A DNA stretch of 32,000 nt, taken from Gynuella sp. GTDB taxonomy: Bacteria; Pseudomonadota; Gammaproteobacteria; Pseudomonadales; Natronospirillaceae. The stretch spans positions 38,265 to 70,264 of the forward strand of contig JANQHX010000094.1 of NCBI GenBank assembly GCA_028282465.1, written 5' to 3'. The notes under the pieces are model-generated. The model made no database searches. It was not told the origin of the DNA and saw nothing but the letters and a program-made list of their open reading frames with translations. Below, piece by piece: positions 94 through 32,000 of the stretch. Position 1 is the stretch's first letter; the number at the start of each line of letters is the position of its first letter. Made by a program: the position numbers and the translations under genes.

Positions 94-1860
94 ATGAACC
101 TGTGGTATCGATTTTTAGCCTTGATTGCGATGGCATTACTGATGACGGCTTGCGGTCGTGTGCCTGATGAAGAGGATACAGGGGGCACGGATACCGGTAC
201 AGATACGGGAACAGGAACGGGTGTAAATGATGACGGCACTGTTGGTATCGGAGATGGAACAAGGGAAGGAGTGAGTTACTTGCCTCTATCTTTTTATTTA
301 CAACACGCAGAATACTGGGAGGATGCTGCAGATTCTTTTGTAATAGACACAGATGCTGACAGCTTTTATATCTGGAACTATATGATTCAGCCCATCCATT
401 CTTTTACAAGGGAAGCCATAACCACTGCAACCATAGAAGATTACTCCATTATTGAAGATGGCGAAGAAATAGAAGCAGAAGAGCAATTTCCCACACTCAA
501 CAGAGTAGCTAGCCCACCTATTAACCTGCTTACAGCGATTATCGTCGATGGCTCGCTGAGTGTTGCTGACTCAAGTGATATTGATGTTGATGAAGCTGCC
601 CTTATAGCTGAAATTAAAGAATTCATAACGCTGGCTCAAGCCAGTGATGACCCTAGTATCGCTAATCAACAATTTGTAGTTTGGCAGGTCGGAGAGTTTA
701 TAGAAGACGACTCGTACCCCAACGAATTTTGTTGTGACGTTACTAATATGAATTATATTTCTCAAGGTGCTGTTAATTTAGCAGATAGGAACTTTACTAC
801 TGATTCTGATGTGGTTGATGATGCTTTGGATGCGGTTTCATTTGGTCATTATGACTCTAACCTTTATATGGCTGTTGTTAAAGCCATTGGCATGAGAATA
901 GAAGCGCTTGCAGGCTTCCAAGAAATTGGAGAGCTTTTTTTCTTTGATGGCAACAACGACTTATATGATTTTGTTGGAGCAGATGGCATTCAACTCGGCA
1001 ACGTTTTACTTTTTTCAAAAGGCGGTGACGTTGGTGACGTTAGCCGAGAAGATTACATAAAGGCATTAGAATCTCAGGTTACTCTTAGATATGACACCAA
1101 CCCAGTACTAGATGAAGTTGATCTAGAAGGTAGCGGCAATGAACTTAATGATGATGATGAAGAGCAGGTCGTTAGCAGTCCAGTAACACAGATTTTAAAA
1201 CCTGTAATTTACCTTACACCAGTCAGTCAGAGTAATTTTGGTGATTCGGAGCAGTTTATTGCAGACAATGCGGAAGCTGTAATTCAAATTAGTCAGACTG
1301 GAAATTATGATTTTGCTGAAGATATTATTGCTGCCCAACAGGCAGCTATCTCAGCTCGTGTAGATCAAGATTCCGTTTATATGGTGAGATCGGAGCTAGG
1401 CTTTAGAACAGGGAATCACACTCGCGAATTTACGTCTGCCTCTAGCAATGGGGGTTACAATTACACCTTAGGTGTTGAGCTAATTGAAATGAACGGTGGT
1501 ACAGTACCTTTGGCTTTTTGCTATCTAGATACAGTTCTAGAACTCATGGGCCCCAACGAAGAATACCTTTCCAATTTAACCATCAGCAGATCTGAGTTTA
1601 ATCGTGTTTACGCCCATACCCTTTGGACAAATACTGAGTATCAAGCCAATGATTACAATTGGTCAGGCACAGCCGCGTTCGTAGACAATAATGATGGCAG
1701 TATCAACCTCACCGGAAATGGAACCATCACCCTGACCAACACAAACCCTCAATTTGCCGCTGCAAGAGCTGCGTGCCCTCAGGTGGCAATTCCGAATACT
1801 AACCCGATACAGTACACGGACAGGGTTGATACCGGAATTACCTATACAATTACCGACTAA
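94..1860 (+). CDS. Acidic secreted lipoprotein of unknown function, possible von Willebrand A (vWA)-like core
   Basis: 588-codon ORF with GGAG about 10 nt upstream of the ATG. The N-terminus MNLWYRFLALIAMALLMTAC has a hydrophobic region ending in Cys (lipobox-like), followed by a TDTGTDTGTGTG linker. The protein is very Asp/Glu-rich. A hydrophobic strand followed by DGSLS (nt 547-561) resembles the DxSxS MIDAS motif of vWA domains. A hairpin terminator follows directly. Confidence 0.8.
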   Translation: MNLWYRFLALIAMALLMTACGRVPDEEDTGGTDTGTDTGTGTGVNDDGTVGIGDGTREGVSYLPLSFYLQHAEYWEDAADSFVIDTDADSFYIWNYMIQPIHSFTREAITTATIEDYSIIEDGEEIEAEEQFPTLNRVASPPINLLTAIIVDGSLSVADSSDIDVDEAALIAEIKEFITLAQASDDPSIANQQFVVWQVGEFIEDDSYPNEFCCDVTNMNYISQGAVNLADRNFTTDSDVVDDALDAVSFGHYDSNLYMAVVKAIGMRIEALAGFQEIGELFFFDGNNDLYDFVGADGIQLGNVLLFSKGGDVGDVSREDYIKALESQVTLRYDTNPVLDEVDLEGSGNELNDDDEEQVVSSPVTQILKPVIYLTPVSQSNFGDSEQFIADNAEAVIQISQTGNYDFAEDIIAAQQAAISARVDQDSVYMVRSELGFRTGNHTREFTSASSNGGYNYTLGVELIEMNGGTVPLAFCYLDTVLELMGPNEEYLSNLTISRSEFNRVYAHTLWTNTEYQANDYNWSGTAAFVDNNDGSINLTGNGTITLTNTNPQFAAARAACPQVAIPNTNPIQYTDRVDTGITYTITD

Positions 1861-1896
1861 ATAAAAAACCCGGCTTATTTGCCGGGTTCTTTATTT
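1861..1896. terminator. Bidirectional rho-independent terminator between convergent genes
   Basis: AACCCGGC (1867-1874) / GCCGGGTT (1881-1888) form an 8-bp GC-rich stem with a 6-nt loop. It is flanked by an A-run on the left and a T-rich tract on the right, so it can serve both strands. Confidence 0.8.
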
Positions 1897-2718
1897 CAAC
1901 TGAATCTTCTCAAACACAACATCAGACGGGCGGCTTTTCATTTTCACTTTACGCCATTGCTGTTCAGCCTTTTCTCGAGATGTAAATGGTCCTAAATAGA
2001 CTTGAGTTTTTTTATCTCTCAGGCGTACAAATTTTTTCACATCATCATTAAGCAATGGATAATTTAGCTGCCATTTTGCAGGCGTTTTTTGGTATTCAAT
2101 TACTACCCAATAACCTGAAATAAAAAATACATCATTTTCTTTTGATTCTTTTTCTTCTTCTGGAATTTGACCAGTAAGCTCATCCAATTTTGCTGCTAGC
2201 GGAAATTTTTTAAATTTCCAACGTATCCCAAAACCTGCGCTGCCTGTTTTATCTCCTTCAAAGAAGCCGGTTTTGTAAGATGAATAAAAATAAGATTGAA
2301 AAGGCGCTTCAACTTCTAGATTAAGTCTTACTCCTGTTTCTAGCTGGCTTTGCCACTGTTCTATATACACTTGATCTTGATATTCGAAATACCAATTCGA
2401 AAAACCAAATGTTGCAAAGGGCTCAACATCGAATGGGCCAACATCAACAAGATGAATGCCGATCCCAAATTCTGTCACTAGGTCGTCGGTAGCAACCACA
2501 CTGTCTTGAACTTGGTATTTCTTTGAGAATCGATAGCTATAGCCCGTGTAAAAGGTAAGTAGCGTTCCGATATCTTGGTTTAAGCCGATTGAAACGCCTG
2601 TAGTTTTCACTCGAGGGTCATTAAAAAACTGTGTGTGTACTCCAAGAGCATTGCACTGTTGAGAAACAAACATCAGGGCACAGGAACTCACTGCTACTGT
2701 AAACGCTACCCGCCTCAT
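1891..2718 (-). CDS. Outer-membrane beta-barrel protein with C-terminal SPOR-like (peptidoglycan-binding) domain
   Basis: 275-codon ORF with signal peptide MRRVAFTVAVSSCALMFVSQQCNA. About 150 aa show alternating aromatic/hydrophobic beta-strand pattern ending in GFGIRWKF (a terminal Phe, as in a barrel beta-signal). A charged linker (EEEKESKEND) follows. The C-terminus YWVVIEYQKT...VYLGPFTSREKAEQQWRKV matches the SPOR pattern (...V.LGPF.sr..A...). Confidence 0.7.
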   Translation of the reverse strand: MRRVAFTVAVSSCALMFVSQQCNALGVHTQFFNDPRVKTTGVSIGLNQDIGTLLTFYTGYSYRFSKKYQVQDSVVATDDLVTEFGIGIHLVDVGPFDVEPFATFGFSNWYFEYQDQVYIEQWQSQLETGVRLNLEVEAPFQSYFYSSYKTGFFEGDKTGSAGFGIRWKFKKFPLAAKLDELTGQIPEEEKESKENDVFFISGYWVVIEYQKTPAKWQLNYPLLNDDVKKFVRLRDKKTQVYLGPFTSREKAEQQWRKVKMKSRPSDVVFEKIQLK

Positions 2719-16996: not shown

Positions 16997-18514
16997 TCAT
17001 GGAGCCAATTCCTGAGTATTGGTTGAAACACCAGGAATTAAATTGATTAATTCAATAAATGGCTGGTTGTAGAAGAACAACACTAAACACCCAATACTGG
17101 TAATCACAATGGCGATTAAACTGGGCAGTGGCGCCTCTTTGGTTTGCGACCAAGACCAGGGCTGTTCATTTTTTTCCGGTGAATTAAAAAAAGCTTTAAT
17201 GGGAATAGGTAGAAGGTAAGCAATATTTAATAAAGAACTGATGGTCAAAACGGCTAGCACAATTAATTTATCCGCCTCTAACGCACCCACAAATAAAAAC
17301 CATTTGCTCCAGGTTCCAGCGAAAGGTGGCAAACCAATAATACTTAATGAGCCGATAGCAAATGCAATCATTGTGATTGGCATGGTACGACCCAGCCCTG
17401 CCATTTCACTGATATTTTTTTTATGAGCAGCCACCATAATGGCGCCCGCACAAAAGAATAACGTAATCTTGCCAACGGCATGGGTAACGATGTGAAGAGT
17501 GGCTCCTGCAGTGGCAACTGATGAAGCTAACAGCGCACCTAAAACAATATAACTGAGCTGGCTAACCGTTGAATAAGCAAGTCGCGCTTTCAAATTATCT
17601 TTGGTCATGGCAATGCATGAAGAAAGTAAAATGGTTGCCGCTGCGATATAAAGCATTAGATCTGCAGTGGGTACTTCTTTCAGACCATCAATACCAAATA
17701 TATAAATGGCCACTTTGAGAATACTGAAAACACCGGCTTTTACCACAGCGACCGCATGCAATAATGCGCTAACCGGTGTGGGTGCAACCATAGCCGCTGG
17801 CAACCACCGATGAAACGGCATGATTGCAGCTTTACCAATGCCGTAGCAAAACAGAACCAATAACACACCCAACACAAGGGGGTTATTGACCTCATTTAAA
17901 ATTCCGCCCGGTGTAAATTCCAAAATACCTGCAACTGACCAAGTACCCAATACTGCTAGCAAAAGAAATGCGATAGACGTACTCAATAGAATGCCTAAAT
18001 AGATTCTTCCACCCTTTTTCGCTTCGTAAGTACCTGCATGAGTCACCAATGGGTAGGTAGAGAGTGTCAGCACTTCATAAAAAACAAAAAGAGTGAGCAA
18101 GTTTCTAGAGAAACAAATAGCCATGACTGAACTAATTGCTAAAGCAAAACAGAAAAAGAATCGAGTTTGATTTTTCTCGTGATGACCACGCATATACCCA
18201 ATGGCGTAAATACTGGTAATAATCCAAAGAAAGCTGGCAACCAGTGCAAATAAAACACCCAATGGCTCAACTTCAAACGCCAAAGCAATACCTGGAACCA
18301 ATTCAACCCAGGTGACTTGCATTTGAACACCATTGAAGGCATTACTGGTAATGGCAAGTACGATGGTAAAAAGAATGATCGAGGTAGTAATGGTGACTGC
18401 TTCACGCAGGTTAGGTGACTTTCTAGCTGCCAATAAGGCACACCCACCAATTAAAGGAACAATAATCGCTAATAAAATTAATTGTGACGGTTCAACAAAC
18501 CCCCATAAGTTCAT
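16997..18514 (-). CDS. MrpD-like antiporter subunit (NuoM/N family), paralog 2
   Basis: 505-codon polytopic ORF with motifs WLPAAMVAPTPVSALLHAVAVVKAGVF, TLHIVTHAVGKITLFFCAG, GLGRTMPITM. A 4-nt ATGA-type overlap joins it to the upstream gene. Confidence 0.88.
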   Translation of the reverse strand: MNLWGFVEPSQLILLAIIVPLIGGCALLAARKSPNLREAVTITTSIILFTIVLAITSNAFNGVQMQVTWVELVPGIALAFEVEPLGVLFALVASFLWIITSIYAIGYMRGHHEKNQTRFFFCFALAISSVMAICFSRNLLTLFVFYEVLTLSTYPLVTHAGTYEAKKGGRIYLGILLSTSIAFLLLAVLGTWSVAGILEFTPGGILNEVNNPLVLGVLLVLFCYGIGKAAIMPFHRWLPAAMVAPTPVSALLHAVAVVKAGVFSILKVAIYIFGIDGLKEVPTADLMLYIAAATILLSSCIAMTKDNLKARLAYSTVSQLSYIVLGALLASSVATAGATLHIVTHAVGKITLFFCAGAIMVAAHKKNISEMAGLGRTMPITMIAFAIGSLSIIGLPPFAGTWSKWFLFVGALEADKLIVLAVLTISSLLNIAYLLPIPIKAFFNSPEKNEQPWSWSQTKEAPLPSLIAIVITSIGCLVLFFYNQPFIELINLIPGVSTNTQELAP

Positions 18515-20034
18515 GGTTTCATCTCCATTACTTGAGGCACTGAGGTTTGTGAATTTTCAAATAGCCATTGTGCGGCTGCGCTGGCTGCGTCAGTCGTTAG
18601 CGATGTATCAATGCCAAAATATAAATTGGCGATGACTAATATCCACATGGGTACCAGCATCAAATATGGCACTTCTTTAACTTGTTCAGGATCAGTGCCT
18701 TCGGGAAGTTTTTGGAAATAAGCCGCCTCTAAAATTCTACCTATATAGACGACCGCTAATAGCGACCCCAACAACACCAGCACAGCCACCAACCAATTAC
18801 CCTGATCCAATGCGGCGCTCACCAAATACCATTTACTAATAAAACCAACGGTCAGAGGCACACCGATAATACTTAGACCAGCTAAGGTAAATCCGGCCAT
18901 GGTCCAAGGCATGTGCTTACCCAACCCACGAAAGTCCTGCAAATTCACGGAACCCACTCGATAGAACACAGCACCAACCGCCATAAACAACGCACCCTTC
19001 ATTAAGGCATGGTTGAAAATATGAATGAGGCCTGCCATTAATCCAGCTGCACTGACTAATGCAATGCCCAAAACCATGTACCCAATTTGCGCAACAGAGC
19101 TAAAGGCTAAAACCGTTTTTACATTGTTCTGTACGGTTGCCATATAAGAGCACTTAAAAATAGCGACAACCGCAAGCACCATTAAAATCAGATCCATACC
19201 CATGTCATTAAATACATGGTCTGCCCCGAAAATGGTGAAGATAAAACGAATCATCACATACACTGCAACCTTGGTCGCCGTGCTGGCTAAAAACGCGGTA
19301 ACAGCAGATGGCGCGTGAGTGTAGGCAGGTGGTAACCACATATGCAGCGGAAACAATGCTAATTTAATTCCCACGCCAACCATCACAAACGCGAGACCCG
19401 TGTTGATGGTTCTACTGCTTTCATAAAGGTTTATGCGCACAGACAAATCAAGCATATTTAAAGTGCCGGTTTTCATATACAGCATACCGACACCGATCAA
19501 AATAAAGGTCGCGCCTATGGTTCCCATCACCAAATAGCGAAAGGCCGCGGTTAAACAACGGCGATCAGATGCAAGACTGACCAGTGTGTAGGTAGCAAGC
19601 GAAGAAATTTCCAAAAACACAAACAGGTTGAAGGCGTCGCCGGTAACCAAGATGCCAGAAAGACCTGCCAAACAAAGCATATGTGCCGTGTAAAACAGTA
19701 AGTGCTTATCGCTCTCAATTTCTTTAGCGACACTGTCTTTTGAATAAATCAAAACTAGGGTTGAAATGGCAGTGACCGCAAGCAAAACAAAAGCATTGGC
19801 AGCATCAATTCGTAATTCAATACCCCATGGTGCCATCCAACCACCCACAGCATAAGATAAAGAACCGCTCGCTAAGCAGGTTATTAATAATTGCCACGCA
19901 GCAATGGTTGCGAAACCACTCACTAGAGTTGCCACCATCCAAGCCAAGCTCGAACGGCCAACTAAAAGCACAATAGGCGCTGCTATCAGCGGTAATAAAA
20001 TGGGCAGCGCAGCTAAATGTTGTTCAAGCATCAA
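18511..20034 (-). CDS. MrpD-like antiporter subunit (NuoM/N family), paralog 1
   Basis: 507-codon polytopic ORF with motifs WLPPAYTHAPSAVTAFLASTATKVAVY, LIHIFNHALMKGALFMAVG, GLGKHMPWTM. It has 4-nt overlaps with both neighbouring genes. Confidence 0.88.
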   Translation of the reverse strand: MMLEQHLAALPILLPLIAAPIVLLVGRSSLAWMVATLVSGFATIAAWQLLITCLASGSLSYAVGGWMAPWGIELRIDAANAFVLLAVTAISTLVLIYSKDSVAKEIESDKHLLFYTAHMLCLAGLSGILVTGDAFNLFVFLEISSLATYTLVSLASDRRCLTAAFRYLVMGTIGATFILIGVGMLYMKTGTLNMLDLSVRINLYESSRTINTGLAFVMVGVGIKLALFPLHMWLPPAYTHAPSAVTAFLASTATKVAVYVMIRFIFTIFGADHVFNDMGMDLILMVLAVVAIFKCSYMATVQNNVKTVLAFSSVAQIGYMVLGIALVSAAGLMAGLIHIFNHALMKGALFMAVGAVFYRVGSVNLQDFRGLGKHMPWTMAGFTLAGLSIIGVPLTVGFISKWYLVSAALDQGNWLVAVLVLLGSLLAVVYIGRILEAAYFQKLPEGTDPEQVKEVPYLMLVPMWILVIANLYFGIDTSLTTDAASAAAQWLFENSQTSVPQVMEMKP

Positions 20035-20387
20035 ATTGCATCATCACTATTTTTAAACTCATTCTCTTCTACCGTGCCGTAAGCACGCTTGATTCTAATA
20101 ATGAGGGCTAAACCCACAGAAGTTGTTGCTACACCCACCACAATGGCGGTAAGAATCAACACATGGGGAAGCGGATTGGAATAAAGTTCAACACCTTCCA
20201 CGACAATGGGCGCGGTTCCACCGGTCACCTTTCCCATGGAGATATAAAGCATAAATACAGAAGTCTGAAAGATATTCAAACCTGCTATTTTTTTAACCAA
20301 ATTATTTGCTGATATGACAATATAAAAACCGGTCATCATGAGGAATACCACAACCCAATAATTGTAGTAGTCGAGAATAAAACTCAT
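20031..20387 (-). CDS. MrpC/MnhC-like subunit (NuoK-like)
   Basis: 118-codon three-TM ORF. NLVKKIAGLNIFQTSVFMLYIS and LPHVLILTAIVVGVATTSVGLALI are typical of MnhC/NuoK. It is overlap-coupled to both neighbours. Confidence 0.85.
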   Translation of the reverse strand: MSFILDYYNYWVVVFLMMTGFYIVISANNLVKKIAGLNIFQTSVFMLYISMGKVTGGTAPIVVEGVELYSNPLPHVLILTAIVVGVATTSVGLALIIRIKRAYGTVEENEFKNSDDAI

Positions 20388-21364
20388 GACACGTTTCTCC
20401 TTTCAGCTTGACTGGCAAAGGCGTAAAAAATGCTGAGCATTACCGCAAAAACAGTAATGCCAACGCCGAGTTCAATAATAATAATGCCGTAATGCTGACC
20501 ATGAACAGGATCATGGGCGAGCTTGTTGTAATCAAGAAAGTTACCACCCATAAACATGCTGTAGATTCCAACACTGGCATAAAGCAATACACCTAGCGGC
20601 GCCAGAATTTGCAGAAATTTTGGACTGATTACACGTAGTGCCATAGGTAACCCAAACACCAAGGCATAAAGAATAATGGCCGCCGCTGCTATCACGCCCG
20701 CTTGGAAACCACCCCCAGGGCCATAGTCACCGTGAAACTGAACATATAGGGCAAACAAGATCACAAATGGAATAATGATCTTAGCAACAACGTGCAAAAC
20801 CCGATGAGACTTAAGACCAGAGTCAGGGGCTTCATCATCTTCTTTGCGTCGAACACTTAACAGGGTCAACACGCCAATCATCGCGGCGAATACAACAACG
20901 GTTTCGCCCAATGTATCAAAGCCCCGGTAGCTCGCTAGTACAGACGTAACCATATTAGGCAAGCCCACTTCTACAGGAGACTGTTCTATATAACGTGGTG
21001 CCACATGTTGATGGATAGGATTATTAGCATCACCAAATGGAGGCATGTCTATGGTGCCATATATTAACGCTGCGCCCGTTACCGTCACCACAAGGAAGGG
21101 CAGTATAGAAGAATGCTTACTTTCTTTTTCCTTGCGCCCGGTGAGCGCTAAGGTGCTCAGCATTAATACAGTCGAAATACCAGCACCTACGGCCGCTTCA
21201 GTGAACGCAACATCAACCGCATCTAAGTTAATGAAAATGAGTGCAGACAAAAAGCTGTAAATACCGAACAGCATAACAACAGCGAAGAGATCTTTTAGAA
21301 AGATAATTCTCAATGCAGTGAGTGCTAACATCGACAATAAAACCAAATCTATAAGCACTGCCAT
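20384..21364 (-). CDS. MrpB/MnhB-like subunit with an N-terminal MbhD/MrpA-C-terminal-like (DUF4040-type) module
   Basis: 326-codon polytopic ORF. The N-terminal ~90 aa (LFAVVMLFGIYSFLSALIFINLDAVDVAFTEAAVGAGISTVL) resemble the MbhD/DUF4040 segment. The remainder (RGFDTLGETVVVFAAMIGVLTLL...) resembles the MnhB domain. Confidence 0.75.
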   Translation of the reverse strand: MAVLIDLVLLSMLALTALRIIFLKDLFAVVMLFGIYSFLSALIFINLDAVDVAFTEAAVGAGISTVLMLSTLALTGRKEKESKHSSILPFLVVTVTGAALIYGTIDMPPFGDANNPIHQHVAPRYIEQSPVEVGLPNMVTSVLASYRGFDTLGETVVVFAAMIGVLTLLSVRRKEDDEAPDSGLKSHRVLHVVAKIIIPFVILFALYVQFHGDYGPGGGFQAGVIAAAAIILYALVFGLPMALRVISPKFLQILAPLGVLLYASVGIYSMFMGGNFLDYNKLAHDPVHGQHYGIIIIELGVGITVFAVMLSIFYAFASQAERRNVS

Positions 21365-21365
21365 A

Positions 21366-21689
21366 TTATGAATTCTCTTTTTTCTTTTTAGACTCTGGAA
21401 TACTCAAAAGACCACCGTGACGGGCAGATTTTGCTAAGGCATGGGACGCAGTTGGGCTGGTAATCATTAAAAAGAGCAAAATAAATATTAACTTTGCCGT
21501 ATTTAAATCGAATTGGGTTTGCAGCATTAAGCCAGTCAAAATCAAAATGGATGCGATTGATTCGGTCACACTGGCAGCATGTACTCGCGTGAAAAAGTCT
21601 GGAAATCGGAATAAACCCAATGCACCGGTAAAACCAAAAAACACCCCGACAAGCAAAAGAACGCCACTAAGAATATCCAAAAAGAACAT
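21366..21689 (-). CDS. MrpG/MnhG-like subunit
   Basis: 107-codon ORF with an AAGGA RBS 6 nt upstream. It carries the MnhG signature GALGLFRFPDFFTRVHAAS. Confidence 0.85.
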   Translation of the reverse strand: MFFLDILSGVLLLVGVFFGFTGALGLFRFPDFFTRVHAASVTESIASILILTGLMLQTQFDLNTAKLIFILLFLMITSPTASHALAKSARHGGLLSIPESKKKKENS

Positions 21690-21710
21690 GCTCTATCCTT
21701 AACCTGTTTG

Positions 21711-21977
21711 TTATTCGATGGGTGCGATGTATTCAAAAAATCGCAACACCGCAATCATTCCAATGAAATTAATAAGCGCATAGACGATGGCGATATCAAG
21801 AAAATCAGGACGCCCCATTAGAAAACCTACCGCCGCGATGAATAACACAGTTTTAGTGCCAAACATATTAACGCCCAAGATTCGGTCATAAACGGTGTCG
21901 GCATAACAGGCTCGGGCTAGGGCCAGCCCCATTACCACTAAAATGGCGATACAAACCGTCGCGAGCACTCCGATCAT
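21711..21977 (-). CDS. MrpF/MnhF-like subunit
   Basis: Three-TM ORF with VYDRILGVNMFGTKTV... as in MnhF. I prefer the ATG at 21977, which forms an ATGA overlap with the MrpE stop. The ORF track start at 21992 is 5 codons longer. Confidence 0.8.
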   Translation of the reverse strand: MIGVLATVCIAILVVMGLALARACYADTVYDRILGVNMFGTKTVLFIAAVGFLMGRPDFLDIAIVYALINFIGMIAVLRFFEYIAPIE

Positions 21978-22450
21978 TTGTTTTCTCCCCAAATACTGGT
22001 GATTTTTCGTTCCATTTCACCAGATTTCAGATCATCAATAGACTCTTTCTGTAACGCATGAACGGTAATCTCGCCATCTTCCAAATCAACACTCATGGTA
22101 CCAGGGGTAAGAGTAATGGAGTTTGCATAGAGAACTCTTGATGCTTCGCGAGTGTTTTGAACGGAAATCTTTTCTAAGGAAGGTGAAAGCTTAATCGTTG
22201 GAGACCAAATTAAACGGGTAACCTGGACACTGGATAATACGATTTGCCAAAACAACCACACAACGTAACGCAGCATGCGGTGACCGATACTAATGACCAT
22301 GGGTTCTTCATCTGCTTTATCCATGCGCCTAAGAAACACTAACACGATAACCACAGACAACACGCCGAATCCGAGCATCAAAGGCTTGAAATAACCTGAA
22401 AGCAGCATCCAAAACACCGCTAAAAACAACGTCCATTTTCCGAAATGCAT
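21974..22450 (-). CDS. MrpE/MnhE-like subunit
   Basis: MHFGKWTLFLAVFWMLLSGYF... has a typical MnhE N-terminus, with an AGGA RBS 9 nt upstream of the ATG at 22450. The 43 extra N-terminal codons in the ORF-track version (start 22579) look non-coding and contain a TATAAT box. Confidence 0.78.
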   Translation of the reverse strand: MHFGKWTLFLAVFWMLLSGYFKPLMLGFGVLSVVIVLVFLRRMDKADEEPMVISIGHRMLRYVVWLFWQIVLSSVQVTRLIWSPTIKLSPSLEKISVQNTREASRVLYANSITLTPGTMSVDLEDGEITVHALQKESIDDLKSGEMERKITSIWGENK

Positions 22451-22495
22451 ATCATTGTTTCCTAAATCGCTCGTTTTCCCGAGTATTATCAACGA

Positions 22496-22524
22496 ATTAT
22501 AGCCGTCATTTAATGTAATAACGA
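22496..22524 (-). promoter_or_regulatory. Candidate promoter of the Mrp-like operon
   Basis: On the minus strand: TCGTTA, a 17-nt spacer, then TATAAT (perfect -10, weak -35), about 45 nt upstream of the preferred MrpE start. Confidence 0.3.
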
Positions 22525-23213
22525 CACTATAGCTACTTTGTTTTACAACTGATTTTATTGTTTCATACAAATTAGGCAAATTTTGTGCTTTAAAATAGCG
22601 AGATTGATGAGTTAAATGACAGATCGCAAGCTGACACTTTTAAAGCAGTGGTTTTTGGTGATCCAATATTTACGGAAGCCAAGCTCTTGCGTGACAAACA
22701 CCAGCTTGATAGAACATATAATGCTCGGTATCAATAGCTTGCCTTCCAGATACTCGCGACAGAACTTCAAGTGCCCTTTTCTTTCTGCATCAGTCATTAA
22801 TTCACTAATGAGCATCAGCCAGCTCATTAAAACTTTATCGGGCGATCCAAAACTATTTTCCTAATAGCACATAACTAATGATAGGTATCAAAAGGACAAT
22901 ATTTCCATATCGAAATTATTAGTCTTCATAAAATGATTTAACTACTAAGAATATCCAATGGCAGAGTCATTAAAAAATATATTTATTTAGCTAAGGGGTA
23001 ATTGCCACTTTAGCTTTCGCGTCTTGTTATTTCATTGGCATATTCTTCAATTAAAATTTGACAAGACTAATTTCGATCACCTCGTTTTTTAGCATGATGC
23101 TTTATTGGAAAAAATAAAAACACTTTTTTGGTCAAACAGCCCCCTCTATTCCTTTACTTACCGGTATTTGAAAACTATACATATGTGAGTTGTAGAAATA
23201 GATTAAGAAGTAA

Positions 23214-25889
23214 ATGACACGTCGTACCGATATTGGTCTAAGGCAGGCCATAAGTAATATTGAGCGAATGATGATGGCTGATCCAGAGATGGATCGTGTA
23301 CTCAGTAGATGCCTTTATCAGCTTTTATCTTTATTTAAATCACCCAATGGTTATGTGTTTGAGTGTTACGATACCACTGAAAACCATATCCCTTGGCAAT
23401 TGGCTGCTTACATAAAATCCAATAACGGGGTGTTAACTGAAGAAGACTTCTTTACCACCTCTAGCTTTATCCCCGAAGACCTCAAATCAAAACTGTTAGC
23501 TGGGCGAATAATTGTCGAAACCGAATTTGAAGACAGTGCCATCCCGTTTCCTAAAACTGATCAACCGATCAAGAACTGTATTGTTGTACCTATTGTCGAT
23601 GCGAAACGCATCCATGCAGTATTCGTGCTGTTCGATACCCCAAAGCTAGGCGACCATCTCGCCGAAATCCAAAATAGGCTAAGACCCTTTAATTCAGCCT
23701 GTTTGTGCCTCTTGAATGCCATAGAAAAACGCAGAGTGTTTCAGGCACCCAAGGTGTTTCCACCCACTATTAGCGACCACCCGGAACAATTGCTAGGTGT
23801 TTTAGACAGCCTATTCAATAGCGTTATCATCGTTAACCAAGATGACTTAATCGTCATTTGCAATCAGGCTGCGGCTGCACTTCTTTCTACCTCTCGTCGA
23901 AATATGATTGGCAGTAATATTTCTGAATTTCTACCCAGAGGCGCGCCTTACATTACCAGTCGCCTTAAAGCTCAGCTCAATGGCAGCAACACCAACCATA
24001 AGTCTGCAAGAATTTGGCGAGGTGTTCCCGCAGTTACAGCTGAACAGAAAAATATTATTGTTGACCTGAGCGCTTTTGAAATTCGAGACGGCGATCGTCA
24101 ATTATTAGGCATTGTGCTAAACGACATCAGTGACCGATTAAAGTCTACTTCTGAGTATCATGAAACTCTTCAACGCTTTCAGGTCATTACTAACCTAGCT
24201 CCCGTTGCAATCTTGCAATTAAATAGAGATTGGGAGTGCACCTATGTTAATGATACCTGGTGCGACTATTGTCAGATGACACCAGACGAGACTGAGGGAA
24301 CCGGATGGATAAACGGTGTTCATCGTTCAGATATAGACCAAGTTCTGAATGAGTTAAGAGTTAAAACTAATTTAGAAGGTAAATATGAAGGAGAATTTCG
24401 ATTAGTCACACCTTTAGGCCGAATCATTTGGGTAAAGGCCAACGCCTGTAGCCTTTATTCTGAAGAGGGTGAGATATCTGGACTAATCATCACGTTCCAC
24501 GACATTACTGAGCATTTGAGAAAAGAAGAAAAACTCAAAGACATCGCCGAAAAAGATCAGCTTACCGGTTTAATTAACCGAACTTTATTTAACGACCGAC
24601 TAGAGATTGCCCTTAGTGGCGTTTCTCGTTTTGGCGCTGTGGCATTGATGTTCATTGATTTAGATGAGTTTAAGATGATTAATGACACCATGGGTCACGA
24701 CGCTGGCGATGAGTTATTAAAAGTTGTGGCAAGCCGATTTAGAAAAAACATTCGAAAAGTGGATACCATTGCACGAATTGGCGGCGATGAGTTTACGGTG
24801 ATTCTCACATCCGTCACCAACACCCACTCCATAACCTCAATAGCTGACAAGTTAATTGAGTCGTTGCAAGAACCAATCTATCTTAGTAATAAATGTATTT
24901 ATGTTACGTGCAGCATAGGTATTGCTGTTGCTGAAGACTCGAAAACCAATAGCAAGTCTCTTTTAAAATATGCCGACTCCGCTTTATACCGAGCTAAAGA
25001 CTCAGGTCGAAATCAATATAAGTTTTATACAGAAGAGCTAGACAAGAACGCGCATGTTCACATCCGTCTTAAACAAAGTATTCGTGAAAACGCAAACCGC
25101 GATTTTCATTTGGTATTCCAGCCACAGGTGAATGTAAAAACTGGTGACATAGTCGGGCTTGAAGCACTAGCGCGATGGTCCCATCCAGACCTAGAACCCA
25201 TTGGGCCTAGCGTGTTTATTAAAATGATTGAAGAGTCGGGGCTAATTAAAGACTTTTCAGAGTGGCTACTGACTGAAACATTTTCCACCATGAAGCGATG
25301 GCAAGACCAAGGCCTAATGGATGGAATACGAGTTTCAATAAACCTGTCTGCCAAACAATTCAGAGATAAATCATTAGCGACTTATCTTTATCAGAAAGCA
25401 CGAGAACATGATATTGCCCCCAAATCTGTCATTCTAGAAGTCACAGAAACAGCATTAATTGACGATTCAAGCGTTACTCAAAAAACATTGAACCGCCTTG
25501 CCAGTATGGGGTTTGATTTATCACTAGATGATTTTGGTACTGGTTATTCATCATTAAGCTACTTACGCACAATGCCATTAAAAGGGGTGAAGATAGACAG
25601 ATCCTTCACCAAAGACGTGCTTCACGATGATGAAGACGCAAAAATTGTTACCGCCATTATTCAATTAGCCGGCGCTCTTGAATTAGATCTTGTGGCAGAA
25701 GGGGTAGAAAATGTGTCTGTAATGGAATGGTTAAAGGAACGTCATTGTTACATTCACCAAGGCTTTCATTTTTATGAGCCACTCATAATTGACGATACCG
25801 AACAGGAACTTTTCAACAGGATGAACAACACAACCACTAATCAAAATGTTATAAGACTGGTAACGGAAAACAGAAATAACTTACTATGA
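23214..25889 (+). CDS. GAF-like/PAS/PAS/GGDEF/EAL c-di-GMP turnover protein
   Basis: 891-codon ORF with an N-terminal GAF-like region and two PAS-like segments (LDSLFNSVIIVNQDDLIVICNQAAA...; APVAILQLNRDWECTYVNDTWCDYCQMT...). The GGDEF domain has an intact RIGGDEF (nt 24780-24794) and an RxxD I-site (RKVD) five residues upstream. The EAL domain has EALARW, EVTE, DDFGTGYSSLSYL, KIDRSF and EGVE. Confidence 0.92.
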   Translation: MTRRTDIGLRQAISNIERMMMADPEMDRVLSRCLYQLLSLFKSPNGYVFECYDTTENHIPWQLAAYIKSNNGVLTEEDFFTTSSFIPEDLKSKLLAGRIIVETEFEDSAIPFPKTDQPIKNCIVVPIVDAKRIHAVFVLFDTPKLGDHLAEIQNRLRPFNSACLCLLNAIEKRRVFQAPKVFPPTISDHPEQLLGVLDSLFNSVIIVNQDDLIVICNQAAAALLSTSRRNMIGSNISEFLPRGAPYITSRLKAQLNGSNTNHKSARIWRGVPAVTAEQKNIIVDLSAFEIRDGDRQLLGIVLNDISDRLKSTSEYHETLQRFQVITNLAPVAILQLNRDWECTYVNDTWCDYCQMTPDETEGTGWINGVHRSDIDQVLNELRVKTNLEGKYEGEFRLVTPLGRIIWVKANACSLYSEEGEISGLIITFHDITEHLRKEEKLKDIAEKDQLTGLINRTLFNDRLEIALSGVSRFGAVALMFIDLDEFKMINDTMGHDAGDELLKVVASRFRKNIRKVDTIARIGGDEFTVILTSVTNTHSITSIADKLIESLQEPIYLSNKCIYVTCSIGIAVAEDSKTNSKSLLKYADSALYRAKDSGRNQYKFYTEELDKNAHVHIRLKQSIRENANRDFHLVFQPQVNVKTGDIVGLEALARWSHPDLEPIGPSVFIKMIEESGLIKDFSEWLLTETFSTMKRWQDQGLMDGIRVSINLSAKQFRDKSLATYLYQKAREHDIAPKSVILEVTETALIDDSSVTQKTLNRLASMGFDLSLDDFGTGYSSLSYLRTMPLKGVKIDRSFTKDVLHDDEDAKIVTAIIQLAGALELDLVAEGVENVSVMEWLKERHCYIHQGFHFYEPLIIDDTEQELFNRMNNTTTNQNVIRLVTENRNNLL

Positions 25890-25915
25890 CCCAGTATTAA
25901 ATTAAACCACAAAGT

Positions 25916-28900
25916 TTGGAGTCAATTTTGGACGAAATTAAAAAGGAAGAGTTTAATTTAGAAAGTCCATCGCACTTTGTTGGTATAGGAGCTTCCGCAG
26001 GTGGGCTGGAAGCCTTGCAAGTTTTTTTTCGTCACCTACCTAGCAATACCGGTGCATCCTTTATTATTGTTCAGCACCTTTCCCCAGATTATAAAAGCAT
26101 GATGCCCGAATTGCTGAGCAAACATACCAGCATGAGTATTCATCTAGTGGAAGATGGGATTGCCTTAGAGCCAGATTCTATTTACTTAATGCCTCCTCGA
26201 AAAAATATGTTGCTGGGTGAAGGCAAGCTCTTTTTATCCGAACAAATGCCAGAAGCCAATGTGCATATGCCCATTGATACTTTTTTACGTACATTAGCAG
26301 AAGACCAACAACACAAAGGTATTGGTATTGTGCTGTCAGGTACTGGTAGCGATGGCACAAGAGGTATCAAAGCTATTAAGGAGGCAGGTGGACTTGTTAT
26401 CGTTCAAGAACCAAGCACAGCCAAGTTTGATGGCATGCCAATCAGCGCTTTAAAAACCGGCTTAGCAGATATATTGTTGGCTCCAAAAGACATGGGAGTC
26501 ACACTTGCAAAATTTATCGAACATCCATCCATTTCAGGAAAAGACTCATCCATTAAATATTCGGTTGGGCTCGAAGACGATACCTTCAGTGAGATCTTTC
26601 AGCTACTCAAAAATGAATCTTCAATTAATTTTTCTCAATACAAAGCATCCACAGTAGCAAGAAGGATAGAACGACGACTGGGAATTAATCAGCTTACCTC
26701 TTTGGAGTCTTACCTAAAACTTTTACTGGACTCACCCAAAGAGCTTCAAACCCTTAGTAAAGAATTACTTATTGGCGTAACGCGATTTTTTAGAGACGAT
26801 GAAGCTTTTAGTAAATTAACAACCACAGTGGTACCTGCCATTGTGGAAAAAGCACACAAGTACGAAGAGGAGATTCGAATATGGGTGGCCGGATGCTCTA
26901 CCGGTGAAGAAGCCTATTCCATTGCCATTCTCTTTGATGAATACATGCAAAAGAAAGACATGGTATGTCCGGTTAAAATATTTGCTACCGATGTCGATAA
27001 AGAAGCCATTTCAGAAGCCAGCTATGGTATTTACTCAATTGACATTTTGCAGGACCTTACTGAAGAGCGGTTAAGTCATTACTTTGAATTGAGAAAAGAC
27101 AAATATGTGGTATCAAGCCGTATAAGACAAATGGTGATATTCGCCTCTCATAACATGATTGAAGATCCACCGTTTTCGAATCTAGACTTAGTTACTTGTA
27201 GAAATGTACTAATTTATTTTCAGCACTCAGCTCAAAAACGGGTTCTAGCCTCTCTCCATTTTGCTTTGAATAAAGAAGGCTACTTATTATTAGGGGCGTC
27301 AGAAACGCTCGGCGACCTTGCTACTCACTTTTATAAAGTAGATGAACGTGCAAAAGTTTTTTTAAAAATAAGCAACCTTAAAGTACCCTTCGCAACAGCG
27401 CCAGGCCAATCAGACTCTGAAGTTGCTCGGTTAGCAGCACCTGGGCTAGGCATGTCGACAACAGCGAACATCACGAAAAAGATCACACAAATTTCAAGAG
27501 GGCCAATGGAAGCCGTACTTGAAAGATTGGTCAGTGAGTACTCACCCAATTGCATAGTGATTAACCAAGAAGTGGGTACTGAAGGTCAGCTCGGCGGCAA
27601 AGCCGAAGTGCGAGGTGTGTCTGGTGCTTGGCAAGAGCTCACAGACAACGTAAACGGCATGGCCGACAACCTCACTAATCAGGTTCGAAACATTGCCACC
27701 GTAGCAACCGCAGTGGCCAATGGTGACCTTAGCCAGAAAATTACAGTAGATGCTCGCGGCGAAATTCTAGAACTGAAAAACACTATCAACACCATGGTGG
27801 ACAAGCTTACCCGATTTGCTGCAGAAGTTACTCGAGTGGCGCAGGAGGTAGGTACCGAAGGTAAGTTAGGTGGACAAGCAGAAGTAAGTGGCGTAACTGG
27901 AGCCTGGGGAGACCTAACCTTTAACGTCAACAAATTAGCCAACAACCTGACTGACCAGGTGCGAGATATTGCGCGGGTGGCACAAGCCGTTGCTAACGGT
28001 AACCTGGAACAAAAGATCACGGTGGAAGCACAAGGCGAAGTGCTCGCGCTGAAAGAAACCATTAACTCCATGACAGAAACTCTGTCTTTGTTTGCTAACC
28101 AAGTAACCAGTGTTGCGAAAGAAGTGGGGACTGAGGGTAAGTTGGGCGGTCAGGCCGATGTACCTAACGCAGAAGGTATTTGGAAAGACCTTACCGAAAA
28201 CGTTAACGAACTGGCAGATAACTTAACCCGTCAGATTCGCGCCATTTTAACCGTGGTAACCGACGTAACCGAAGGCAACTTAACCGGCAGCATTGACGTG
28301 GTTGCAAAGGGAGAAGTTGAGACCTTGAAAAATGGTCTTAACCAAATGATTAAAACCCTGAAGGACACATCAGACATTAACTTTGAGCAAGACTGGCTTA
28401 AAACCAACCTGTCTAACTTTAGCCAGTTAATGCAAGGCAATAAAGATTTGCAATCTTTGGCTGATGTGGTGATTCAAGAACTTTGCCCGGCCATTGAAGC
28501 ACAGCATGGTGTGTTTTATTTACTAGATGAAGGCTCAGAGGATAGACCAAAAACGCCTGAGCTAGTCTTGCTGGCAAGCTATGCTTATCACGAGCGTAAA
28601 TCTGTGGCGAACGCCTTTGAGCTCGGCCAAGGTTTAGTTGGGCAAGCCGGGCGTGAGAAAAAACGAATTTTGGTTCACCAGGCTCCCGATGATTACATCA
28701 AAATTGGCTCTGGCTTAGGTGATGCATTGCCACTGCATATTGTAGTCATTCCTGTATTGTTTGAAGGTGAGTTACTGGCTGTGATTGAGCTTGCATCTTT
28801 TAATCATTTCACTGACAACGAACTGAACTTTCTCGATCAACTTGCTGCAAGTTTAGGGGTGGTAGCGAACGCGGTGAAAGCCAGTGCCCAAACTGAACGA

Positions 28901-31288
28901 TTGCTGCAAGCGTCACAATCACTTTCTCAAGAACTTCAGGATCAGCAGGCTGAGCTCACTGAAACTAACCAGAAGCTTGAAGTTCAAGCGAAAAACTTGC
29001 GAGAGTCTGAATCGAAATTAAAAAGTCAGCAGGAAGAACTTCAACAAACCAATGAAGAGCTGGAAGAAAAATCAAGAGTACTGGCTGACCAGAAACGAGA
29101 GGTGGAACAAAAGAATCGTGAGGTTGAAATTGCCAAAGTTGAGATTGAAGAAAAAGCGCAACAATTGGCTGTGTCTTCCCGTTATAAATCTGAATTCCTG
29201 GCAAACATGTCTCATGAATTGAGAACACCACTAAACAGCTTAATGGTGCTCTCTGATGGTCTGCGCAAAAATATTGATAAAAATCTGACCGACAAACAAA
29301 TCGAAAAAATGAGTACCATCCATGATTCCGGTATTGAATTATTAGAGCTCATCAATGAAATTTTGGATCTTGCAAAAATTGAAGCGGGTAAAATGTCAGT
29401 GCAAATTGGTGATATTTTCCTTCAGCGATTAACTAACTGGGCTGAACGGGGCTTCTCACAACTAGCTGAAAATAAAGGTCTGAAATTCCTAACCTCAATT
29501 GATGAAAATCTACCCGCAGCTATTCAAACGGATGAAAAACGATTACAACAAGTTATTAAAAACTTTTTATCCAATGCCATTAAATTTACTGAAAAAGGCA
29601 AGGTATCGCTTGATATATACCAAGCCTCTCATGGTTGGAGTTCTAGTAACCAGTCACTGAACCAAGCCAATATTGTGATTGCATTTGCGGTGCAAGATAC
29701 TGGTATTGGTATACCAGAAGACAAACATCAAGTTATTTTCGAGGCTTTTCAACAAGCCGATGGTACAACAAGCAGACGCTTTGGTGGCACAGGCTTAGGA
29801 CTTTCCATTAGCCGTGAGATCGCAGGTATTATGGGTGGTGAAATTACACTGCAAAGCACTGTCAATGAAGGCAGCGTATTCACGCTATTCCTGCCTCAGG
29901 TATTTCCTAATCCAACGCAAAAAGAACCTGAGCCTATAAGAAGTACACCAACGCCCTTACCTAGCTCAAGTATAAGTGCTGCCATTCAAAATGCTGACCC
30001 TGCCACTCCATCTTATTTGCTACAAAATGAGAGAACCGCCGTTATTGAAGCACCCACAAGTTCAGAGATGGAAGACGATAGAGTTAATATAAAAGCAGGT
30101 GACCGAACAGTTCTAATTATTGAAGACGATTTAACCTTTGCCAAAGTGTTGCTAGATCGAGCTAGAGAACAGGGGTTCAAAGGCATTGTAGCAACCCAAG
30201 GAGATACCGGCCTGTATTGTGCTCAGGAATACAGGCCAGACGCTATTATTCTAGATATACGCTTACCAGTCATGAATGGCTGGACTGTGCTAGACCGAAT
30301 AAAACATGATGCCAATATAAGACACATACCCGTTCATGTTGTATCAGCCGATGACGTTGCTTACCGAGGCCTCAAACATGGCGCCATTTCCTGTTTACAA
30401 AAACCCCTAGATGAAGATCACCTAGTCAGTATGTTTAACAGCATATCTGTATTTAATCAGGAAAAAGTACGTCACCTGTTGGTGATAGAAGATGATGAAA
30501 GCCAGCGTAAAGCCATTGCAGATCTAATTGGTAATGGTGACGTGCATACCAGTACCGCAGCTACCGCATTGGAGGGTTTGGAACTGTTAGAAAAACAAAC
30601 CTTCCATTGTTTAGTGTTAGACCTAATGCTGCCAGACATGAGTGGTTTTGAACTCATTGAAAAAATAAAACAAAACGAAAATTTGCTTAACCTTCCAATT
30701 ATTGTTTACACCGGCAAAGAACTCACTGAGCATGAAGAAACAAGGCTTCGTTCTGTAGCAGAAACCATTATTGTGAAAAACGTTCGATCTCCTGAGCGCT
30801 TGCTCGATGAAACGGCTTTGTTCCTGCATCGAGTTGAGGCCAATCTACCCGAATCTAAAAGGCAAATGCTGCAACAGGTTCATGAAAGTGACCCTCAATT
30901 AGCTGGTAGAAAAATCCTTATCGTGGATGATGATGTACGCAATATCTTCACATTAACCTCAGTATTCGAAGCTCATGAAAGCGTAACGGTTTATGCCGAA
31001 AGTGGTAAAGAAGCGATAGAGATTCTGGAGAAAACACCAGACATTGAAATAGTACTCATGGATATCATGATGCCAGAAATGGATGGTTATGAAACCATGC
31101 GCCGTATTCGACAGAAGCCAGAATTTGTTGATCTCCCTATTATTGCAGTAACGGCTAAAGCCATGAGAGAAGACCGACAAAAATGTTTAGACGGGGGGGC
31201 ATCTGATTACCTTGTGAAACCGATAGATACTGAGCAGCTATTGTCTTTAGTGCGTGTTTGGTTATATCGCGAGCCTGGATTGAATTAG
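25916..31288 (+). CDS. CheB-methylesterase / CheR-methyltransferase / poly-HAMP / GAF / hybrid histidine kinase with three receiver domains
   Basis: 1790-codon ORF only 26 nt after the GGDEF-EAL stop. No in-frame ATG precedes the first domain. The start is TTG at 25916 or, more likely, TTG at 25928, which is 6 nt after GGAG.
- CheB: [23 protein letters not shown] (about 25970-26500).
- CheR: [27 protein letters not shown] (about 26580-27370).
- Three 92-aa HAMP-pair repeats (27566-28393).
- GAF (about 28400-28890).
- Coiled coil (28895-29200).
- HisKA: SHELRTPLN (His codon 29213-29215).
- HATPase_c: [17 protein letters not shown].
- REC domains at about 30104-30420, 30470-30830 and 30908-31265. 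Confidence 0.92.
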
Positions 31289-31290
31289 TG

Positions 31291-32000
31291 ATGATTGAAA
31301 CCGACGATAGCCTGTCTGGAAAAAGTAAGGCCTATAAAGAACAACCTAGACTTTATTCCAATGTAGAAACGGATAACCTGACAGATATAGAACTGAATCT
31401 GTTAACAGAGGCTATTTATGCTTATCGCGGTTTCGATTTTAGAGATTACGCGAGGGAGTCACTGCAACGCCGAGTCTTTAACTTAATGGAGCTGGAAGGT
31501 TTAGCCACTATTTCGGCGCTACAAGAAAAGGTGCTACACGAAAAATCAGTCATGGAAAGGTTTTTATTAGCCATGTCCATTAATGTGACTGACATGTTTA
31601 GAGACCCGGAAACTTTCTTAATTTTCCGCGAAAAAGTAATACCTATTCTTCGAACCTATCCATCAATACGCATTTGGCATGCAGGATGTTCAACAGGAGA
31701 AGAAGTCTATTCTCTAGCTATTTTACTTGAAGAAGAGCATCTAATAGACAAAACACAAATTTATGCCACCGACATAAATGAAGCGGTACTAAAAACTGCT
31801 AAGCAGGGAGTTTATCCTTTAAGCGTAATGCAAGGCTATACTAATAATTATATGAAAGCAGGAGGCAAAAGAGCTTTTTCTGAGTATTACCATGCCAGTC
31901 ATGAACATATTATTTTTAAGCCTTCTTTACGCGACCGAGTTGTATTTGCACGACACAATTTAGTAAGTGATGCATCCTTTAACGAATTCAATGTTATATT
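31291..32000 (+). CDS. Stand-alone CheR-type protein-glutamate methyltransferase (3' end beyond window)
   Basis: Open frame from the ATG at 31291 (TAGTGATG junction with the upstream stop) to the window end. It is absent from the ORF track because no stop is reached. Translation by hand gives ...AIYAYRGFDFRDYARESLQRRV...MFRDPETFLIFREKVIPIL...[23 protein letters not shown]...IYATDINEAVLKTAKQGVYP, matching CheR N-domain and SAM-binding motifs. Confidence 0.88.
   Translation, partial: MIETDDSLSGKSKAYKEQPRLYSNVETDNLTDIELNLLTEAIYAYRGFDFRDYARESLQRRVFNLMELEGLATISALQEKVLHEKSVMERFLLAMSINVTDMFRDPETFLIFREKVIPILRTYPSIRIWHAGCSTGEEVYSLAILLEEEHLIDKTQIYATDINEAVLKTAKQGVYPLSVMQGYTNNYMKAGGKRAFSEYYHASHEHIIFKPSLRDRVVFARHNLVSDASFNEFNVI

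Follow-up and report, generated by a model that had tools for sequence, protein, structure and literature searches.

The window analysed here, a 32,000-nucleotide stretch of contig JANQHX010000094.1 from Gynuella sp., contains near its right end a large signalling gene in which a CheB-type methylesterase and a CheR-type methyltransferase are fused to a poly-HAMP hybrid histidine kinase. The gene lies on the + strand, as do all of its features described below. Its open reading frame (ORF) runs uninterrupted from 25916 to 31288, or 1790 codons when counted from the TTG at 25916. A GGAG Shine-Dalgarno sequence at 25918-25921 is located 6 nt ahead of another TTG at 25928, which makes this second codon the likelier start; the probable true initiation region therefore spans 25918..25930, and the resulting 1786-aa product corresponds to NCBI entry P0001. 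Comparison with relatives indicates that the gene is probably a chimera of two conserved genes, joined in frame between codons 550 and 551.

A sequence-only reading of the window had described this ORF, from N to C terminus, as CheB, CheR, HAMP repeats, a GAF domain, a long coil, HisKA/HATPase and three receivers. Pfam scans returned the same succession, with every domain well over its cut-off. The CheB domain (25979..26497; CheB_methylest, PF01339, aa 22-194, 185 bits against a cut-off of 24) matched the structures 3SFT, 1CHD and 1A2O in the Protein Data Bank. Alignment with the last of these, the Salmonella typhimurium CheB, placed Ser27, His54 and Asp146 at the positions of the catalytic Ser164, His190 and Asp286, in agreement with the consensus of 63 homologues, and both the intact triad and the missing N-terminal receiver that had been read from the sequence were upheld. 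The protein is set apart from chemotaxis CheB, since there is no receiver ahead of the CheB domain, which begins at residue 22, and it scored below the cut-offs of the NCBIfam CheB models NF009206 (193.5 versus 342) and NF001965 (179.6 versus 293). The S-adenosylmethionine (SAM)-dependent methyltransferase domain follows at 26585..27349 (CheR_N, PF03705, aa 224-274, 53 bits; CheR, PF01739, aa 288-478, 190 bits) and matched the CheR structures 5FTW, 5Y4R and 1AF7.

The kinase part starts with three HAMP and three HAMP_2 stretches (27566..28393, ~aa 551-826) that form repeat units with a spacing of exactly 92 aa and a mutual identity of 47-67%. They are followed by a GAF domain (28442..28861, aa 843-982; PF13185 and PF01590), a Glu/Gln-rich coiled coil of ~108 aa (28862..29185) that leads to the dimerization and histidine phosphotransfer (DHp) domain, and a kinase core (29186..29899) made up of HisKA (PF00512, aa 1091-1158) with the H-box SHELRTP and HATPase_c (PF02518, aa 1205-1328). 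Three receivers (PF00072, Response_reg) occupy 30104..31252, at ~30104-30460, 30470-30840 and 30914-31252. Alignment with CheY located equivalents of D13, D57, T/S87 and K109 in all three, so that the phospho-acceptor Asp noted earlier in each receiver was found again. With its H-box, HATPase_c domain and receivers carrying the acidic pocket, phospho-Asp, T/S and Lys, the C-terminal part is a hybrid histidine kinase. Pfam detected no Hpt domain in the fusion protein.

The two parts of the protein lead to different families. We carried out three protein searches over 5.8 billion protein clusters; statements on uniqueness below apply among the matches listed. When the whole protein was used as query, the other strong matches covered only its first 30%. 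Residues 1-550 correspond to the 5′ half of a gene for a ~1010-aa CheB-CheR-PAS_10-receiver protein and are 60-68% identical to members of that family. In an alignment with 63 of these proteins, homology breaks off exactly at N550, in the midst of a well-conserved block: the family consensus at the break reads ...EYAPDCIVLNDSFDAVHVYGDV, and the family goes on past N550 with ...DSFDAVHVYGDV... The segment between the CheR domain and this point (27350..27565) aligns with the same 63 homologues as a variable linker and a ~20-residue stub, the start of the parental sensor region, in which a PAS-like domain is cut after its first strand. The remainder of the left parent, comprising the PAS-like domain, a coiled coil with NEEL motifs, PAS_10 and a receiver, is missing from the fusion. 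In keeping with this, the protein gave no PAS_10 match and, with homology halting at N550, does not have the full architecture of the CheB-CheR-PAS_10 family.

The left parental locus is marked by the upstream neighbour of the fusion, a gene for a PAS-GGDEF-EAL protein (23214..25889, + strand; Pfam). In five relatives (L085 and L090-L093), an intact CheB-CheR-PAS_10-receiver gene is located directly after the orthologous PAS-GGDEF-EAL gene, the ortholog in L085 being 47% identical over its full length. No poly-HAMP kinase was found in the flanks of these five loci. The recurrence of GGDEF-EAL and CheB-CheR-PAS_10-receiver genes as a conserved pair in the five relatives hints that CheB-CheR-PAS_10-receiver proteins may work together with cyclic di-GMP turnover.

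A search with residues 556-1790 gave a different picture from that of the N-terminal part, with matches, numbering in the hundreds, to hybrid kinases of ~2100-2160 aa in which multiple HAMP domains are combined with a GAF domain and three receivers. At the top was P0121, a conserved 2157-aa kinase resembling OsaA of Streptomyces coelicolor (87% identity), and the next named one was P0123 from Spartinivicinus poritis (78%). Residues 551-1790 represent the 3′ 57% of the P0121 gene: across the C-terminal 1232 residues of the encoded protein the identity is 85-89%, and the window protein joins it at about residue 926. Both P0121 and P0123 have eleven 92-aa HAMP units, of which the window protein keeps the last three, as judged from Pfam and from unit spacing against the two kinases; the N-terminal 925 residues, including eight of the eleven HAMP pairs, are missing. 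The protein is therefore not a full-length OsaA-like kinase, as it holds only the last three HAMP units and the C-terminal remainder. The first of the three units is itself truncated, having lost the N-terminal half of its AS1 helix. The earlier description of three 92-aa HAMP repeats thus stands with respect to their spacing and needs correcting in that they are a remnant of an eleven-unit array, with the first of them incomplete. NCBIfam contains no model that claims either parental family.

The intact kinase resides in an operon of its own. Its gene order, shared by S. poritis (L001) and the closest relative (L002), is a CheB-CheR-PAS_10 kinase, a small receiver, a receiver with a C-terminal extension, the 2157-aa kinase and a CheR. 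The CheB-CheR part of the window protein shares only 43-44% identity with the CheB-CheR kinase encoded in this operon, which means that the window module belongs to the paralogue that ends in a receiver; a simple deletion inside the operon of the relatives was rejected on the same figure. Deletion between adjacent genes had no support from relatives, as none of the five that have the GGDEF-EAL/CheB-CheR pair carries the kinase in its flanks, although it may have taken place in this lineage. By gene order, the window combines two conserved loci, keeping the left part of the first and the right part of the second. The pieces that such a join would leave out (the PAS_10-receiver end of the left parent, the N terminus of the kinase, and the operon's CheB-CheR kinase and two receivers) were found nowhere in the 32 kb. 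We also scanned genome contigs with P0121 for a second kinase copy or a reciprocal product and recovered distant relatives only among the matches listed; a protein search with the N terminus of P0121 gave matches dominated by poly-HAMP repeats.

The junction itself (27565..27566; codon 550 AAC, codon 551 CAA, in frame) was placed by blastn, protein alignments and inspection of the DNA. In the blastn comparison, homology to the L001 and L002 kinase genes sets in at 27565. To the right of the junction the sequence is CAAGAAGTGGG, ahead of which an uninterrupted kinase gene would read ...GTN GCN, and the break falls mid-way in a HAMP AS1 helix, after ...FASEVTRVA in P0121. No sequence homologous to both parental families was detected around the junction in DNA and protein alignments. 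As judged from these alignments, the fusion is a single junction of two genes that are separate in every relative examined, and it cuts a domain on each side.

Could the junction have been created during sequencing or assembly? If it came from a chimeric template or from a misjoin, both genes would in reality be present in the genome, separate and intact. The junction is found once only and connects two loci separate in all relatives: among the matches listed, the only proteins combining CheB/CheR with HAMP domains were P0001 and P0240, both from this same sequence, and a back-translated junction peptide had no match in the JGI metagenome collection. Poly-HAMP genes are, moreover, often fragmented in assemblies, and a contig from the same sample in the Logan collection is demonstrably chimeric elsewhere. 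That contig (SRR20820736; L003/L087) has the same junction and is 100% identical to the window over the 9 kb compared (window 22001..31090), such that two different assemblies cross the junction unbroken. A k-mer misjoin needs a shared stretch, and none homologous to both families is present at 27565/27566; neither does the gene contain an exact repeat of at least 14 nt. The lack of both argues that the junction is not a repeat-mediated misassembly. Base composition is equal on the two sides (GC content at third codon positions 0.36 left and 0.35 right of the junction), and the join is in frame. Taken together, we regard an artefact as very improbable. The matched composition also left unsupported the idea that one of the halves is of foreign origin.

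The Logan contig provides an example of what a misjoin in this sample looks like. At window position 31090, in the third receiver after ...MMPEMDGY, it switches into an OmpR-type regulator, with sulfatase and hemerythrin genes beyond; the assembly was misjoined through the shared receiver motif, and the resulting chimera has placed a spurious 1890-aa protein, P0240, in the database. The misjoin at 31090 uses a shared motif, whereas position 27565 has none, which makes the junction unlike a k-mer misjoin. Many poly-HAMP proteins in public collections are labelled 'partial' or are without a kinase end. The 276-nt repeats probably break assemblies, which would make database counts of architectures unreliable for the poly-HAMP family.

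Neither half of the gene shows signs of decay. In the CheB-CheR part we counted one deviation, a conservative one, in ~167 columns that are at least 95% invariant in the family. In the kinase part two of 475 invariant columns deviate, the same as in intact family members, and this part is no farther from outgroups than P0121 is, so no rate acceleration is apparent. Pseudogene decay is not apparent, as neither half has excess change at invariant positions. The absence of decay fits a recent event or a selected product alike.

We consider it probable that the ORF is a real, lineage-specific chimera born of a single illegitimate (non-homologous) recombination, whether a deletion or a rearrangement of another type. 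The alignments show what was joined, namely codon 550 of a CheB-CheR-PAS_10-receiver gene and about codon 926 of a gene for an OsaA-like kinase with eleven HAMP units. The breakpoints within domains, along with the uniqueness of the product, argue for an accident. The sequence-only reading had left the novelty of this exact architecture to a database search, and the architecture turned up in one genome only. Several points weigh against this reading. The junction is known from assembled sequence only, and the two assemblies that share it probably come from one read set and are not independent. It is a striking coincidence that a random breakpoint should have picked as partner a CheB-CheR paralogue of a gene in the kinase's own operon; this coincidence, an in-frame join that has a prior of one in three and the lack of decay leave room for a selected, working fusion. 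Furthermore, the nearest intact relative is only ~75% identical in DNA, so the event is undated.

If the chimera is real, its product would be a soluble, cytoplasmic protein of ~197 kDa. The N-terminal 180 residues of the kinase and eight HAMP units, presumably its input side, would be lost, as would every regulatory domain of the CheB-CheR parent. In a phosphorelay, phosphate probably still passes from the kinase core to its three receivers and on to a separate partner, since the fusion has no Hpt domain. Control of the kinase may be altered or locked, and by analogy with perturbed HAMP units in fungal group III kinases a deregulated enzyme would be expected. In chemotaxis CheB, the receiver inhibits the esterase; with this receiver absent, the CheB domain of the fusion should be constitutively active. 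This CheB domain and the CheR domain both retain their catalytic residues and are probably unregulated. The fusion would then tether a paralogous copy of the methylation enzymes to the kinase by accident rather than by design.

The stop codon of the kinase and the start of the second cheR gene abut at 31288/31291 (TAGTGATG), as the sequence-only reading had also noted. This free-standing CheR-family methyltransferase is interrupted by the end of the window (31291..32000, + strand), and the fragment scored 36.5 bits for CheR_N and 98.8 bits for CheR in Pfam. Its identity is 84% with the CheR of L002 and 67% with the counterpart in L001. Because the CheR of L002 follows an intact kinase, the window's second CheR is identified by the 84% identity as the kinase's original operon partner. 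Against the NCBIfam chemotaxis-CheR equivalog NF007902, which has a cut-off of 435, the orthologous free CheR of L002 reached 84.7 bits and the CheB-CheR protein P0003 reached 124 bits; by these scores, the two are divergent CheR-family enzymes.

The window was then searched for other chemosensory components. Tblastn with the Tsr signalling domain and with E. coli CheW detected no signalling domain of a methyl-accepting chemotaxis protein (MCP) and no CheW, and Pfam scans of window ORFs of at least 150 aa were negative for MCP, CheW and CheA, with CheA covered by Pfam only. These results agree with the earlier statement that none of the three occurs here, within the same limit for CheA, and they support the view that the window locus is not a chemotaxis cluster.

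We next examined the neighbourhoods of the kinase family in a sample of 82 loci (83 in the motif and tblastn comparisons) drawn from the matches listed. The family extends from Nostoc to Streptomyces at 51-62% identity and also occurs in Gammaproteobacteria and Acidobacteriota. A CheR is located directly after the kinase in 14 of the 82 loci, mostly overlapping it or within ~30 nt. The CheR-linked loci come from Gammaproteobacteria, Betaproteobacteria, Gemmatimonadota, Verrucomicrobiota, Acidobacteriota, Myxococcota, Eremiobacterota and a Syntrophobacterales metagenome-assembled genome; three of the 14 add a receiver-less CheB. In two Nostoc loci, a CheB-CheR kinase adjoins the poly-HAMP kinase. 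In the 10 kb around each CheR-linked locus, tblastn detected neither MCP nor CheW, and the MCP-like genes that it did find belong to two of 83 loci, neither of them CheR-linked. We infer from this distribution that the conserved system consists of the kinase and CheR, that relatives add to this pair a receiver-less CheB or a CheB-CheR-PAS_10 kinase, and that the system is chemoreceptor-free.

Two gammaproteobacterial relatives with an intact kinase, one of which is Thalassomonas haliotis, place this module next to genes for KaiB and KaiC. In L088 (14533-18884), the order is kinase, CheR, receiver-less CheB, a 320-aa receiver, KaiB, KaiC and a receiver-kinase; in L089 (14531-18211), it is kinase, CheR, a 320-aa receiver, KaiB and KaiC. 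This arrangement suggests a link between the kinase-CheR module and a KaiBC system. The non-chemotaxis phosphorelay tied to methylation enzymes that had been proposed for the window therefore survives as a conserved association of kinase and CheR, and not as a property of this fusion. The accompanying proposal, that the kinase carries its own adaptation enzymes, was not borne out as an evolved architecture: the fusion consists of a single mid-domain junction between genes that are separate in relatives.

The same neighbourhoods bear on whether the fusion might be a functional, selected protein. In that case CheB, CheR and the downstream CheR would add methyl groups to Glu residues of the kinase, which the earlier reading had named as a possible substrate, and remove them again, for instance in the coil between GAF and DHp; a histidine kinase would thereby have methylation-based adaptation of its own with no chemoreceptor involved. 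Tight linkage to CheR, together with CheB or CheB-CheR proteins, recurs across the kinase family in loci that have neither MCP nor CheW close by, and the rearrangement, while taking out the CheB-CheR kinase of the operon, supplied a different CheB-CheR module. The join preserves the reading frame, the catalytic, H-box and phospho-Asp residues are all kept, and neither half has excess substitutions at family-invariant positions; a recent event, however, predicts the same absence of decay. A fusion shaped by selection is also harder to reconcile with breaks that fall within a domain of each parent rather than at a linker, and with an architecture known from one genome only. We consider a selected fusion unlikely, and an accidental chimera accounts better for the position of the breaks.

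The identity of a methyl-accepting site was addressed by motif comparison. MCPs are methylated at sites with the consensus [ASTG][ASTG]xx[EQ][EQ]xx[ASTG][ASTG]. This pattern gave zero matches in the fusion, in P0121 and P0123, and in the CheB-CheR proteins P0002 and P0003, which argues against kinase methylation of the MCP type. The coil of the kinase at window 28980-29060 (aa ~1030-1050) does resemble the TNEELQS heptads found at aa ~670-720 of P0002 and P0003, both CheB-CheR-PAS_10 proteins. Across the 83 loci, EEL-rich coils were commoner beside CheR or CheB-CheR genes: coils with at least two EEL motifs occurred in nine of 15 loci with such neighbours versus nine of 67 without (Fisher p = 4e-4, not corrected for phylogeny), although several CheR-linked kinases are without the motif. 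The coil at 28862..29185 is a speculative methyl-acceptor region. A broader proposal is that CheR-paired OsaA-like kinases are themselves methyl-accepting, at Glu pairs in the GAF-DHp coil or the HAMP array, that they do so without a chemoreceptor, that some are wired to KaiB/KaiC, and that the chimera is a still-functional natural tethering of the enzymes; we view this as quite improbable. Identification of the methyl-acceptor of the module would explain the abundant 'cheBR'-type enzymes outside chemotaxis clusters, and the exposed kinase-CheR(-CheB/KaiBC) module is the part of this locus worth following. In the searchable literature, we found no mechanistic work on CheB-CheR fusions (as the earlier reading had surmised), on the kinase-CheR pair or on KaiBC with CheR.

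The rest of the window holds features that are unrelated to the fusion. Upstream of the GGDEF-EAL gene is a complete operon for an Mrp-type multisubunit cation/proton antiporter (15028-22579, - strand), with three Proton_antipo_M subunits, MnhB/MbhD/MbhE, MNHE and small subunits seen in L003. A tRNA-Arg(CCG) gene at 14510-14586 is followed by a unit of ~135 nt repeated ~2.3 times (14565-14856), each unit opening with a copy of the 3′ end of the tRNA-Arg (AATCCTCTAGGGCGCGCCA); just upstream, at 14315-14386, are copies of the tRNA-Arg 5′ half with 87-89% identity. These repeats appear to have been left by integrative elements or by the decay of a tRNA array. Two ORFs, at 94-1860 (+ strand, 588 aa) and 1891-2718 (- strand, 275 aa), had no Pfam match at E ≤ 1e-5 and adjoin an efflux pair of the AcrB/HlyD type.

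With respect to known systems, the N-terminal 550 residues are those of a typical member of the CheB/CheR fusion proteins, annotated by JGI as 'two-component system CheB/CheR fusion protein', a gene name that is also in use in metagenome surveys (PMC8067831). Members of this family include kinases such as P0027, with the architecture CheB-CheR-PAS_10-PAS-GAF-PAS-HisKA-HATPase-REC x2 (REC, receiver), and the earlier remark that CheB-CheR fusions to kinases are present in databases is correct, the route through PAS_10 being a common one. In the family, the CheB-CheR module is always followed by a PAS-like region, the NEEL coil and PAS_10, whereas in the window protein HAMP units begin after ~20 residues. 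By these comparisons, a kinase with its own CheB-CheR is not new at the database level; the linkage to HAMP units is new and a one-off. The case carries a caution, because an intact-looking multidomain ORF may be a one-off splice that only comparison with relatives reveals, and it offers a natural domain-shuffling event for which both parents can be identified.

Methylation enzymes acting beyond motility have precedents in chemosensory pathways with alternative functions, such as Wsp and Che3 of Rhodospirillum centenum, in which CheR and CheB take part and hybrid kinases are involved (PMC3868531). These pathways keep an MCP-like receptor, CheW and a CheA-type kinase, in contrast to the window and the CheR-linked loci, which are without MCP and CheW.

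The C-terminal 1240 residues have their closest described counterpart in OsaA of S. coelicolor, a large and apparently cytosolic hybrid kinase with more than 10 HAMP domains that is followed by the receiver/coiled-coil protein OsaB and functions in osmoadaptation (PMC9739842, PMC10117811). Kinases of the OsaA type, a family of ~2100 aa, share with this part of the window protein the poly-HAMP array, GAF domain, coil, kinase core and receivers as well as the absence of a membrane segment. The Streptomyces loci that we recovered have the same layout as OsaA/OsaB, and OsaA would accordingly be a member of the window kinase's family, a placement made by architecture and synteny rather than by alignment. 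The position after the kinase is taken by an OsaB-type regulator in the case of OsaA and by CheR in the gammaproteobacterial clade.

Fungal group III kinases (Nik1/Os-1/Bos1) are osmosensing enzymes that contain five to six tandem HAMP domains, and perturbing or deleting individual units switches or abolishes signalling (PMC3418262). Likened by architecture, they and the window kinase are cytoplasmic hybrid kinases with HAMP repeats ahead of the kinase core; unlike the window protein, the fungal enzymes are eukaryotic, have no GAF domain, carry a single receiver and are unconnected with CheR or CheB. The effect of losing eight HAMP pairs can be modelled provisionally on these fungal enzymes, and the loss of eight of eleven pairs in the window protein provides, in turn, a ready-made truncation allele for the study of poly-HAMP control.

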